The notes below the pieces were generated by a model. It saw nothing but the letters and a program-made list of their open reading frames with translations, made no database searches and was not told the origin of the DNA. Positions 4,776 through 7,938 of a DNA stretch of 9,359 nucleotides are shown here, in pieces; the first letter of the stretch is position 1; each line of letters starts with the position of its first letter. This stretch comes from a virus (lineage: Duplodnaviria > Heunggongvirae > Uroviricota > Caudoviricetes), in IMG/VR virus record IMGVR_UViG_2541047443_000006; one strand, given 5' to 3'. The position numbers and the translations under genes were made by a program.

Positions 4776-6075
4776 TCTCCCGCATATTGCCAGCATGGCT
4801 TTTAATGAGCCGCTGATGCTTGAACCCGCCTATGCGCGGGTTTTCTTTTGTGCGCTTGCAGGCCAGCTTGGGATCAGCCGCCTGACGGATGCAGTATCCG
4901 GCGACAGCCTGACTGCCGGAGAGGCACCCGCGGCGCTGGCGTTATCCGGTGATGATGACGGACCACGACAGGCCCGGAGTTATCAGGTCATGAACGGCAT
5001 CGCCGTGCTGCCGGTGTCCGGTACGCTGGTCAGCCGGACGCGGGCGCTGCAGCCGTATTCGGGAATGACCGGTTACAACGGCATTATCGCCCGTCTGCAA
5101 CAGGCTGCCAGCGATCCGATGGTGGACGGCATTCTGCTCGATATGGACACACCGGGCGGGATGGTGGCGGGAGCATTTGACTGTGCTGACATCATCGCCC
5201 GTGTGCGAGACATAAAACCGGTATGGGCGCTGGCCAACGACATGAACTGCAGTGCAGGTCAGCTGCTTGCCAGCGCCGCCTCCCGGCGTCTGGTCACGCA
5301 GACCGCCCGGACAGGCTCCATCGGCGTCATGATGGCTCACAGTAATTACGGTGCTGCCCTGGAGAAACAGGGCGTGGAAATCACGCTGATTTACAGCGGC
5401 AGCCATAAGGTGGATGGCAACCCCTACAGCCATCTACCGGGTGATGTCCGGGAAACACTGCAGTCCCGGATGGATGCAACCCGCCGGATGTTTGCGCAGA
5501 AGGTGTCGGCATATACCGGCCTGTCCGTGCAGGCTGTGCTGGATACCGAGGCTGCAGTGTACAGCGGTCAGGAGGCCATTGATGCCGGACTGGCTGATGA
5601 ACTTGTCAACAGCACCGATGCGATCACCGTTATGCGTGATGCACTGGATGCACGTAAATCCCGTCTCTCAGGAGGGCGAATGACCAAAGAGACTCAATCA
5701 ACAACTGTTTCAGCCACTGCTTCGCAGGCTGACGTTACTGGCGTGGTGCCAGCGACGGAGGGCGAAAACGCCAGCGCGGCGCAGCCGGACGTGAACGCGC
5801 AGATCACCGCTGCGGTTGCGGCAGAAAACAGCCGCATTATGGGGATCCTCAACTGTGAGGAGGCTCACGGACGCGAAGAACAGGCCCGCGTGCTGGCAGA
5901 AACCCCCGGTATGACCGTGGAAACGGCCCGCCGCATTCTGGCCGCAGCACCACAGAGTGCACAGGCGCGCAGTGATACTGCGCTGGATCGTCTGATGCAG
6001 GGGGCTCCGGCACCGCTGGCTGCAGGTAACCCGGCATCTGATGCCGTTAACGATTTGCTGAACACACCAGTGTAA
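4756..6075 (+). CDS. C: Head maturation protease gpC (439 aa; S49/ClpP-like serine peptidase family), GTG start inside the B 3' end
   Basis: The long ORF 4621..6075 contains gtg at 4756-4758 preceded by gaggaggag (4743-4751), giving MTAELRNLPHIASMAFNEPLMLEP... as in lambda gpC (439 aa). Overlaps B by 20 nt. The upstream part of the ORF track entry (4621-4755) is rejected as a spurious extension. Confidence 0.9.
5470..6075 (+). CDS. nu3: Scaffolding protein gpNu3 (201 aa), translated from an internal in-frame ATG within C, sharing C's C-terminus and stop
   Basis: ATG at 5470-5472 is in frame with C (5470 minus 4756 = 714 = 238 codons); translation begins MDATRRMFAQKV. Coordinates match lambda Nu3 (lambda 5132..5737) at the same offset as neighbouring genes. 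No obvious strong SD is seen upstream. Confidence 0.8.
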   Translation: MDATRRMFAQKVSAYTGLSVQAVLDTEAAVYSGQEAIDAGLADELVNSTDAITVMRDALDARKSRLSGGRMTKETQSTTVSATASQADVTGVVPATEGENASAAQPDVNAQITAAVAAENSRIMGILNCEEAHGREEQARVLAETPGMTVETARRILAAAPQSAQARSDTALDRLMQGAPAPLAAGNPASDAVNDLLNTPV

Positions 6076-6084
6076 GGGATGTTT

Positions 6085-6417
6085 ATGACGAGCAAAGAAA
6101 CCTTTACCCATTACCAGCCGCTGGGCAACAGTGACCCGGCTCATACCGCAACCGCGCCCGGCGGATTGAGTGCGAAAGCGCCTGCAATGACCCCGCTGAT
6201 GCTGGACACCTCCAGCCGTAAGCTGGTTGCGTGGGATGGCACCACCGACGGTGCTGCCGTTGGCATTCTTGCGGTTGCTGCTGACCAGACCAGCACCACG
6301 CTGACGTTCTACAAGTCCGGCACGTTCCGTTATGAGGATGTGCTCTGGCCGGAGGCTGCCAGCGACGAGACGAAAAAACGGACCGCGTTTGCCGGAACGG
6401 CAATCAGCATCGTTTAA
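6085..6417 (+). CDS. D: Head decoration protein gpD (110 aa)
   Basis: ORF 6079..6417 in the track; the second in-frame ATG at 6085 gives [12 protein letters not shown]... as in lambda gpD (110 aa), with aaggga (6074-6079) 5 nt upstream. TAA stop at 6415-6417. Confidence 0.92.
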
Positions 6418-6437
6418 CCTGACCCTTCATCACTAAA

Positions 6438-6459
6438 GGCCGCCTGTGCGGCTTTTTTT
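6438..6459 (+). terminator. D-E intergenic hairpin: GC stem gccgc / gcggc with ctgt loop, followed by a T7 run; terminator-like or attenuator-like
   Basis: Seen in sequence: gccgc (6439-6443), loop ctgt (6444-6447), gcggc (6448-6452), then ttttttt (6453-6459). Lies between the D stop (6417) and the E start (6473). Confidence 0.45.
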
Positions 6460-6472
6460 ACGGGATTTTTTT

Positions 6473-7498
6473 ATGTCGATGTACACAACCGCCCAACTGC
6501 TGGCGGCAAATGAGCAGAAATTTAAGTTTGATCCGCTGTTTCTGCGTCTCTTTTTCCGTGAGAGCTATCCCTTCACCACGGAGAAAGTCTATCTCTCACA
6601 AATTCCGGGACTGGTAAACATGGCGCTGTACGTTTCGCCGATTGTTTCTGGTGAGGTTATCCGTTCCCGTGGCGGCTCCACCTCTGAATTTACGCCGGGA
6701 TATGTCAAGCCGAAGCATGAAGTGAATCCGCAGATGACCCTGCGTCGCCTGCCGGATGAAGATCCGCAGAATCTGGCGGACCCGGCTTACCGCCGCCGTC
6801 GCATCATCATGCAGAACATGCGTGACGAAGAGCTGGCCATTGCTCAGGTCGAAGAGATGCAGGCAGTTTCTGCCGTGCTCAAGGGCAAATACACCATGAC
6901 CGGTGAAGCCTTCGATCCGGTTGAGGTGGATATGGGCCGCAGTGCGGCGAACAACATCACGCAGTCCGGCGGCACGGAGTGGAGCAAGCGTGACAAGTCC
7001 ACGTATGACCCGACCGACGATATCGAAGCCTACGCGCTGAACGCCAGCGGCGTGGTGAATATCATCGTGTTTGACCCGAAAGGCTGGGCGCTGTTCCGTT
7101 CCTTCAAAGCCGTCAGGGAGAAGCTGGATACCCGTCGCGGCTCTCATTCCGAACTGGAGACAGCGGTAAAAGACCTGGGCAAAGCGGTGTCTTATAAGGG
7201 AATGTATGGCGATGTGGCCATCGTCGTGTATTCCGGACAGTACGTGGAAAACGGCGTCAAAAAGAACTTCCTGCCGGACAACACGATGGTGCTGGGGAAC
7301 ACTCAGGCACGCGGTCTGCGCACCTATGGCTGCATTCAGGATGCGGACGCACAGCGCGAAGGCATTAACGCCTCTGCCCGTTACCCGAAAAACTGGGTGA
7401 CCACCGGCGATCCGGCGCGTGAGTTCACCATGATTCAGTCAGCACCGCTGATGCTGCTGGCTGACCCTGATGAGTTCGTGTCCGTACAACTGGCGTAA
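6473..7498 (+). CDS. E: Major capsid protein gpE (341 aa)
   Basis: Track ORF 6446..7498; the ATG at 6473 gives MSMYTTAQLLAANEQKFKFDPLFLRLFFRESYPF..., matching lambda gpE (341 aa). The upstream M at 6446 would read through the D-E hairpin and is rejected. Confidence 0.95.
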   Translation: MSMYTTAQLLAANEQKFKFDPLFLRLFFRESYPFTTEKVYLSQIPGLVNMALYVSPIVSGEVIRSRGGSTSEFTPGYVKPKHEVNPQMTLRRLPDEDPQNLADPAYRRRRIIMQNMRDEELAIAQVEEMQAVSAVLKGKYTMTGEAFDPVEVDMGRSAANNITQSGGTEWSKRDKSTYDPTDDIEAYALNASGVVNIIVFDPKGWALFRSFKAVREKLDTRRGSHSELETAVKDLGKAVSYKGMYGDVAIVVYSGQYVENGVKKNFLPDNTMVLGNTQARGLRTYGCIQDADAQREGINASARYPKNWVTTGDPAREFTMIQSAPLMLLADPDEFVSVQLA

Positions 7499-7500
7499 TC

Positions 7501-7525
7501 ATGGCCCTTCGGGGCCATTGTTTTT
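7501..7525 (+). terminator. E-FI intergenic hairpin: perfect 7-bp stem with a UUCG tetraloop, followed by tgttttt
   Basis: Seen in sequence: atggccc (7501-7507), ttcg (7508-7511), gggccat (7512-7518), then tgttttt (7519-7525). Starts 3 nt after the E stop codon. Confidence 0.5.
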
Positions 7526-7539
7526 CTGTGGAGGAGTCC

Positions 7540-7938
7540 ATGACGAAAGATGAACTGATTGCCCGTCTCCGCTCGCTGGGTGAACAACTGAACCGTGATG
7601 TCAGCCTGACGGGGACGAAAGAAGAACTGGCGCTCCGTGTGGCAGAGCTGGAAGAGGAGCTTGATGACACGGATGAAACTGCCGGTCAGGACACCCCTCT
7701 CAGCCGGGAAAATGTGCTGACCGGACATGAAAATGAGGTGGGATCAGCGCAGCCGGATACCGTGATTCTGGATACGTCTGAACTGGTCACGGTCGTGGCA
7801 CTGGTGAAGCTGCATACTGATGCACTTCACGTCACGCGGGATGAACCTGTGGCATTTGTGCTGCCGGGAACGGCGTTTCGTGTCTCTGCCGGTGTGGCAG
7901 CCGAAATGACAGAGCGCGGCCTGGCCAGAATGCAATAA
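7540..7938 (+). CDS. FI: DNA packaging / head assembly accessory protein gpFI (132 aa)
   Basis: Track ORF 7501..7938; the ATG at 7540 preceded by ggaggag (7531-7537) gives MTKDELIARLRSLGEQLNRDV..., matching lambda gpFI. The extension back to 7501 would read through the hairpin and is rejected. Confidence 0.92.
   Translation: MTKDELIARLRSLGEQLNRDVSLTGTKEELALRVAELEEELDDTDETAGQDTPLSRENVLTGHENEVGSAQPDTVILDTSELVTVVALVKLHTDALHVTRDEPVAFVLPGTAFRVSAGVAAEMTERGLARMQ

Follow-up and report, generated by a model that had tools for sequence, protein, structure and literature searches.

Hairpins flanking the major capsid gene E of a lambda-family phage: a terminator-like stem-loop before it and a plain stem-loop after it

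The window analysed here, a stretch of 9,359 nucleotides (nt) from the IMG/VR virus record IMGVR_UViG_2541047443_000006, makes up the left arm of a phage of the lambda family, and it carries two compact stem-loops: hp1, between the head decoration gene D and the major capsid gene E, and hp2, between E and FI. Between 6000 and 7800 it shares 99.0% identity with phage 434 and 98.8% with lambda, 86 phage records match, and window coordinates are lambda coordinates plus 338 (lambda D, 5747-6079).

The two hairpins and their surroundings

The start codons of the three genes were corrected to ATG 6085 for D, ATG 6473 for E and ATG 7540 for FI. The genes stand close together: only two intergenic gaps are longer than 15 nt, D/E (55 nt) and E/FI (41 nt), and hp1 and hp2 fill them. 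The features of the locus are as follows.

6085-6417, plus strand: gene D, head decoration protein (stop codon 6415-6417; Pfam HDPD, E = 1.1e-21)
6418-6434, plus strand: G-poor, C-rich spacer from the D stop codon to hp1 (1 G in 17 nt)
6435-6456, plus strand: hp1, stem-loop AAAGGCCGC-CUGU-GCGGCUUU (GC core 6439-6452, loop 6444-6447; -12.2 kcal/mol)
6453-6461, plus strand: run of seven U (U7, 6453-6459) followed by AC; with the preceding GC, GC(U)7AC
6462-6472, plus strand: ribosome-binding region of E, a weak Shine-Dalgarno sequence GGGA followed by a second U7 (6466-6472)
6473-7498, plus strand: gene E, major capsid protein of 341 amino acids (stop codon 7496-7498; Pfam Phage_cap_E, E = 1.1e-71; 98.8-99.0% DNA identity to lambda and 434)
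7501-7518, plus strand: hp2, stem-loop AUGGCCC-UUCG-GGGCCAU (cUUCGg tetraloop, loop 7508-7511; -13.2 kcal/mol, z -3.8)
7519-7529, plus strand: pyrimidine-rich tail UGUUUUUCUGU from hp2 to the FI Shine-Dalgarno sequence, variable among near-identical phages
7530-7938, plus strand: FI Shine-Dalgarno sequence GGAGGAG (7530-7536) and gene FI (stop at 7938; Pfam Packaging_FI, E = 3.1e-58)

A preliminary description of this DNA had reported GC hairpins with downstream T-runs after D and after E. Both hairpins are present in the sequence, and the tetraloop it had noted in hp2 is a true cUUCGg (C7507-UUCG-G7512). The T-run at hp1 is unbroken; the U-tail of hp2 is interrupted and is not conserved.

hp1 begins 18-21 nt after the D stop codon. 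Its core of five base pairs (bp), GCCGC-CUGU-GCGGC, can be lengthened by G.U and A-U pairs to 9 bp. According to a recent preprint, strong intrinsic terminators need, besides a hairpin and a U-tract, GC at the base of the stem and R-U (C being tolerated) after U7, giving the motif GC(U)7RU (Battaglia et al. 2026, 10.64898/2026.05.29.728758). The GC(U)7AC of hp1 agrees with this motif at 10 of 11 positions, and its agreement with the pause consensus GS(N)7RY is complete: at the transcription bubble's edges the GC (-11/-10) and the R match, and the -1 position is C, the weaker allowed base. The perfect GC(U)7AU is found in the L234 and L190 clades. hp1 thus combines a GC-rich stem-loop, an uninterrupted U-tract and the bubble-edge dinucleotides, and judged by its anatomy it is a complete intrinsic-terminator signal, at which unmodified RNA polymerase is predicted to release at about 6460-6461. 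hp2 is unlike it in this respect.

The leader of E consists of U7-ACGGGA-U7-AUG (from 6453, with the second U7 ending at 6472), so that the weak Shine-Dalgarno sequence lies between two U7 runs. The second run begins 13 nt past the hp1 core and was found in just 3 of the 14 enteric clusters of relatives described below; it is replaced by A5UCU in a clade of 87-90% identity and is seen again in the Erwinia-type lineage (L034) and in L040. On the other side of hp1, the spacer after the D stop codon averages 11.7% G and 36.6% C in 28 clusters, compared with 29.5% G and 27.5% C across the loci overall. Such a composition could possibly keep the segment unstructured or offer a binding site for a nuclease or another factor.

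Two other assignments were considered for the D/E gap. hp1 was rejected as a bidirectional terminator: its minus-strand fold is weaker (-9.4 kcal/mol) and the minus-strand tail, CUUUAGUG, is poor. One phi80 record (FN582354 6101-6135, corresponding to L001 1615-1649) places a transcription start, with its -35 and -10 elements, between the D and E homologues. As the annotated start lies within the hp1 loop, this promoter is probably a software prediction and was treated as such, and a promoter scan of the window gave no such site.

hp2 begins 2 nt after the E stop codon. Directly downstream lies UGUUUUUCU (7519-7527), in which the U-run is interrupted and its longest part is U5 at 7521-7525. 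The stem is GC-rich and ends in CCAU, so that the GC expected at the base of a terminator stem is missing, as is a conserved, uninterrupted U-tract. Near-identical phages have UGUUUCUCU, UUUCUCUCU or UGUCUCUCU at this place, the first being the commonest tail (36 fetched loci, mostly lambda-identical contigs). On its sequence, therefore, hp2 appears as a plain and very stable hairpin with a weak, unconserved U/C tail. Pairing of this tail with the FI Shine-Dalgarno sequence or start codon does occur in the minimum-energy fold, but it was discarded as a candidate element on the region's z of -0.6 and its lack of conservation in the 87-90% clade.

The opening bases of hp2 (7501-7503) are an ATG in the FI frame, 13 codons ahead of the true FI start, and it is because of this in-frame ATG that a program-made list of open reading frames gives FI as a protein of 145 amino acids. 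The ATG has no Shine-Dalgarno sequence and lies within the stem; it is probably unused.

Stability of the folds was compared with shuffled sequences. For hp1, shuffles gave -8.0 +/- 2.3 where the native fold has -12.2 kcal/mol (z -1.9), and 8 in 200 of them did as well; for hp2 the -13.2 kcal/mol stands against -5.9 +/- 1.9 (0 of 200 as good). When the 70-80 nt region of each was shuffled with dinucleotides preserved, 1 of 100 shuffles was as good for hp1 and 3 of 100 for hp2. Both hairpins remain when folded with 121 nt of context; these context folds are not themselves significantly unusual (z -0.8 and -0.6). Stability alone does not set the pair apart within the window, where about 35 separate plus-strand hairpins reach -8 kcal/mol or better and the two rank 5th and 9th. 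A generic terminator scan is likewise uninformative by itself, its count being near chance (15 sites against 9.0 +/- 3.5 expected); it finds hp2 and misses hp1, probably because it runs the hp1 stem into the U-run. Compact hairpins of -11 kcal/mol or better with a T-rich tail, counting the U7 of hp1 from the GC core, occur at only three plus-strand sites, two of which are hp1 and hp2, in the two gaps of more than 15 nt. What lies above chance is the combination of hairpin, tail, position in a gap and conservation.

A third terminator-like hairpin in the window, GAACCCGC-CUAUGC-GCGGGUUU (4822-4843, plus strand; -12.0 kcal/mol), is followed by UCUUUUGUG up to 4852. It lies inside gene C, 47 nt past the stop codon of the portal gene B, and the 32-nt stretch is identical in phi80, with synonymous differences in the flanking codons.

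Conservation among relatives of the capsid gene

About 265 loci with E homologues were fetched, and the start and stop of E were located in 233 of them. These fall into 34 clusters at 95% E identity, covering 28-100% identity to the E protein of the window, and the order D then E (HDPD, Phage_cap_E) is kept down to 30% E identity. Each junction was scored by its best ungapped hairpin, with a cut-off of -9 kcal/mol, as follows.

D/E junction: median best hairpin -13.0 kcal/mol; -9 or better in 29 of 34 clusters
Junction after E: median best hairpin -12.9 kcal/mol; -9 or better in 29 of 34 clusters
Upstream of D (70 nt): median best hairpin -5.0 kcal/mol; -9 or better in 3 of 30
Past the next gene (70 nt): median best hairpin -5.2 kcal/mol; -9 or better in 5 of 33

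Windows within E average -3.3 to -6.3 kcal/mol. At the D/E junction 29 of the 34 clusters, and after E 28, have no more than 5 of 100 dinucleotide shuffles as good as the native sequence. Strong hairpins are therefore found at both junctions flanking E and are rare at the neighbouring ones, which amounts to a specific bracketing of the major capsid gene.

For hp2 the plus-strand fold is more stable than its minus-strand counterpart in 25 of 30 clusters (p = 3e-4), and for hp1 in 21 of 30 (p = 2e-3). Among the non-Watson-Crick pairs recorded in the stems, G.U and U.G are far ahead of all others. These two observations together indicate selection on the plus-strand RNA, that is, on the late mRNA. 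The preliminary description had placed both elements inside an operon that is transcribed through. This is supported, the operon being a single late one, as are an action on the plus strand at the RNA level and selection on both hairpins.

The two hairpins are conserved in different ways. hp2 stems are wholly different between clades (AUGGCCC, GUGGCCC, CGGCCC, AGGCUCC, GGGGCGC, AGGCGCGC, GGGUGCCC, CGCCGGGG and GCGAGCGCGC) and remain paired; two-sided changes are seen at all 7 stem pairs, and 93% of cells are paired compared with 30-51% when the partner is slid, counts that rest on hairpin-anchored alignments and so are biased towards structure. The loop is most commonly UUCG among enteric relatives, and UUCG recurs on an unrelated stem in L192; other lineages have UGCG, UGUC, UGUU, UCCG, UUUC or AUUC. 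What follows the stem is not kept. A run of at least six U and then R-Y is found in just 1 of the 34 clusters, the longest U-run is shifted 2-4 nt from the stem in several clades, and in the clades of about 40% identity there is no U-tail at all (0-2 U in the 9 nt past the stem), the stem abutting the GGAG of the next gene.

The core of hp1 is near-invariant, G(G)CCGC-N4-GCGG(C)C, with a loop that is free to vary. The changes in the core are mostly one-sided G.U substitutions, and covariation is confined to the outer pairs. A run of U6-9 and then R-Y (A-C or A-U) follows hp1 in 18 of the 34 clusters, including 13 of the 14 enteric ones, and the distance from the core to the ATG of E is 18-24 nt in almost all clusters. 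The motif GC(U)7RU would offer a reason for the fixed sequence at the base of the stem. The two hairpins had been treated alike in the preliminary description; with GC(U)7AC at hp1, and at hp2 a tail that is unconserved and missing from the clades of about 40% identity, that equivalence is not sustained. The anatomy, position, conservation and strand of the pair are established here.

Lambda E sequence, 96-100% identical, was also met on short contigs assigned to unrelated organisms, many at very low coverage (loci L004-L019, L021, L036 and L038-L074). Neobacillus, Kitasatospora, Chitinophaga and an Akkermansia metagenome-assembled genome are examples. These are most likely contamination by lambda control DNA.

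Possible roles in the late operon

The late operon of lambdoid phages is transcribed by RNA polymerase loaded with Q. At the RNA exit channel the Q-lambda protein makes a nozzle, by which terminator hairpins are kept from forming, and the protein remains on the polymerase for tens of kilobases (10.1101/2022.03.25.485794). It follows that real termination at hp1 and hp2 during late transcription should be small.

In the account that we tentatively favour, while giving it somewhat less than an even chance, the main function of both hairpins is the protection of mRNA 3' ends, and hp1 in addition stops polymerase lacking Q. During lytic growth Q-loaded polymerase would read through both sites, and the hairpins would fold in the finished late mRNA. 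Once the long transcript had been cut they would block 3'-to-5' exonucleases, and the segments ending in D and in E would outlive the downstream FI/FII/Z/U segment. Where transcription may be leaky or spurious, as in a lysogen or in the early phase of infection, hp1 would halt polymerase without Q, and E and the genes beyond it would thereby be kept out of reach of such transcription. We infer the read-through at both sites, the exonuclease barrier and the insulating role from the features described above. Those that bear on stabilisation are the placing of each stem-loop just 3' of a cistron within a polycistronic transcript (hp1 after D, hp2 after E) and the selection on pairing in the transcribed strand, seen at all 7 pairs of hp2 and in the outer pairs only of hp1. 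A role as a 3' mRNA stabiliser, which the preliminary description had given as one of two options, is the best-fitting one, for hp2 especially.

Several points weigh against this account. The structural bias of the pair counts has been mentioned. L176, L157, L183 and L174 keep hp1 without a U-run, so that terminator function must be dispensable in some relatives, and the motif by which hp1 is recognised as a terminator comes from a 2026 preprint. The strict U-tract of hp1 and its fixed 18-24 nt to the start of E fit a translational role equally well. Read-through by Q-loaded polymerase may be incomplete in vivo, leaving some real termination. Finally, the searchable literature yielded neither mapped 3' ends nor RNA-seq steps nor half-lives of mRNA from the late operon of lambda.

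The other option in the preliminary description was that the hairpins are partial terminators, a fraction of polymerases stopping at each so that fewer transcripts continue past E. The full terminator anatomy of hp1 would suit this, and at hp2 the tail has U5 in this phage, the terminator scan picks the site out and the phi80 record labels its counterpart a rho-independent terminator. Leaky terminators do balance expression in T7 and Pseudomonas phages (PMC9163698), and partial termination is among the possibilities named by the authors of the phage L study (PMC8022706). We nevertheless consider it unlikely. Q-loaded polymerase sterically prevents terminator hairpins, and termination during late transcription is thus in conflict with the nozzle. 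The U-tail of hp2 is interrupted, varies among near-identical phages and is absent from distant clades that keep the hairpin. Moreover hp2 lies 2 nt past the E stop codon, and its 5' arm would lie under a ribosome that terminates there. The argument that partial termination would serve a high output of D and E also does not fit the place of hp1 between D and E: attenuation there would lower E relative to D and so cut the most-needed protein.

Another, rather improbable explanation places the hairpins in the context of translation. About 20 nt separate the end of each from the next start codon, and each would lock up the RNA upstream. U-rich leaders recruit ribosomal protein S1. For E, the unstructured leader U7-ACGGGA-U7-AUG might give very high initiation despite the weak Shine-Dalgarno sequence, and for FI, hp2 might keep initiation apart from the dense traffic of ribosomes on E. 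The near-constant spacing from the hp1 core to the ATG speaks for translation, as do the 21 nt from the end of hp2 to the FI ATG and the presence, in every enteric clade, of a weak GGGA before E flanked by U- or A-rich runs. In addition, distant-clade hp2 adjoins the GGAG of the next gene directly, and lineages without the U-run still have hp1 about 16-20 nt ahead of the start codon. Short spacing, however, may reflect mere genome compaction. The change of the second U7 to A5UCU in the 87-90% identity clade and the unremarkable context folds also tell against this explanation, and the exact GC(U)7A[C/U] is better accounted for by termination.

The hairpins might instead act as insulators only, stopping Q-less polymerase to guard the lysogen from leaky capsid and tail expression with no effect on late mRNA. 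hp1 is of terminator grade, such a role has been proposed for late-operon terminators in phage L (PMC8022706), and in the conjugative element Tn916 a terminator with an insulating function is documented (PMC11658703). Yet hp2 is conserved as strongly as hp1 and in most clades lacks the hallmarks of a terminator, hp1 has no U-run in some lineages, and the bracketing of E specifically is left unexplained. We regard a purely insulating role as distinctly improbable.

A Q-dependent terminator has been put forward as a hypothetical arrangement of hairpin, spacer and then a U7-9 tract, with none demonstrated anywhere (Yin et al. 2022, 10.1101/2022.03.25.485794). Either site, or both, could in principle be of this type, with release at a displaced U-run since the nozzle delays the hairpin; the release sites would then be the second U7 of hp1 (6466-6472) and the displaced U5 of hp2 (7521-7525). 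hp1 does have its second U7 13 nt past the stem, whereas the model sets no spacer length. Because that run is found in just 3 of 14 enteric clusters we judge the proposal very improbable. If true, part of the antiterminated late transcription would really end around the capsid gene.

That the elements are DNA-level palindromes (a protein-binding site or a junction for module recombination), or arose by chance, is scarcely credible: perfect or near-perfect inverted repeats do stand at gene boundaries and similarly stable hairpins are common in the window, but the explanation was rejected on strand asymmetry (the plus-strand fold being systematically more stable and the stem variants mostly plus-strand G.U pairs), on stem turnover (hp2 stems fully replaced yet still paired) and on position controls (hairpins specific to the two E-flanking junctions), shuffle controls reject chance, and there is no match to an Rfam family.

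Comparison with known elements and significance

hp1 resembles canonical intrinsic terminators with GC(U)7RU (10.64898/2026.05.29.728758) in its GC-rich stem of 5-9 bp, 4-nt loop, stem-final GC, U7 and A-C. It differs from them in lying inside an antiterminated operon, 11-12 nt ahead of the most highly expressed gene, and in having C rather than U at -1. hp2 differs from them in having no GC beside the U-tract and an interrupted U-run.

Stem-loops between cistrons are known to stabilise the mRNA segment upstream of them, as do the repetitive extragenic palindromic (REP) elements in malEFG, the hairpins of the puf operon and the hairpin that follows papA, the major pilin gene. As in these, a stable hairpin stands right behind the gene whose product is most needed, structure is conserved over sequence and there is no requirement for a U-tract. 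Unlike them, hp1 and hp2 are short single stems (7-9 bp) without REP-type repeats, and hp2 lies 2 nt past a stop codon.

Among phages, the direct counterpart of hp2 is the phi80 terminator after gene 8 (FN582354), GUGGCCC-UGUC-GGGCCAC, which is annotated as rho-independent; at the position of hp1 the same record has a predicted promoter and not a terminator. Neither hairpin is annotated in the lambda RefSeq record. In phage L, a terminator that closes the procapsid module (PMC8022706) occupies the same place within a single late operon as hp2, and the inefficient terminators of T7 (cited in PMC9163698) belong with these. A search of the whole window against Rfam 15 at a permissive threshold gave sub-threshold chance matches only (isrK, 18.1 bits against a gathering threshold of 50; PhotoRC-I, 14.2 against 45).

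Elsewhere in the window, the stretch 275-353 takes in the cohesive-end site, with GGGCGGCGACCT at about 340-351 and lambda coordinate 1 at 339. As this site is spanned, the source must have been a prophage, a concatemer or a permuted assembly. Just upstream of the cohesive end, at 277-304, there is a promoter-like site (GTGACA, 16-nt spacer, TATCAT) with 10 of 12 matches.

The hairpins are of a familiar and essentially already known kind, the phi80 record having annotated the counterpart of hp2. What is added here is the bracketing of the capsid gene across the whole family and the distinction between hp1, which is of terminator grade, and hp2, a plain hairpin. Late operons that are read by antiterminated polymerase still carry terminator-like hairpins, for which the authors of the phage L study propose these same roles while calling the roles 'not known' (PMC8022706). 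The distinction drawn here gives separate predictions for the two: hp1 would stop unmodified polymerase and let Q-loaded polymerase pass, whereas hp2 would barely terminate either and would determine where E mRNA has its 3' end and how long it lasts. In practice the value is modest, and would concern how lambda-like phages set the ratios of capsid proteins and the engineering of lambda vectors or display systems with inserts beside D or E.

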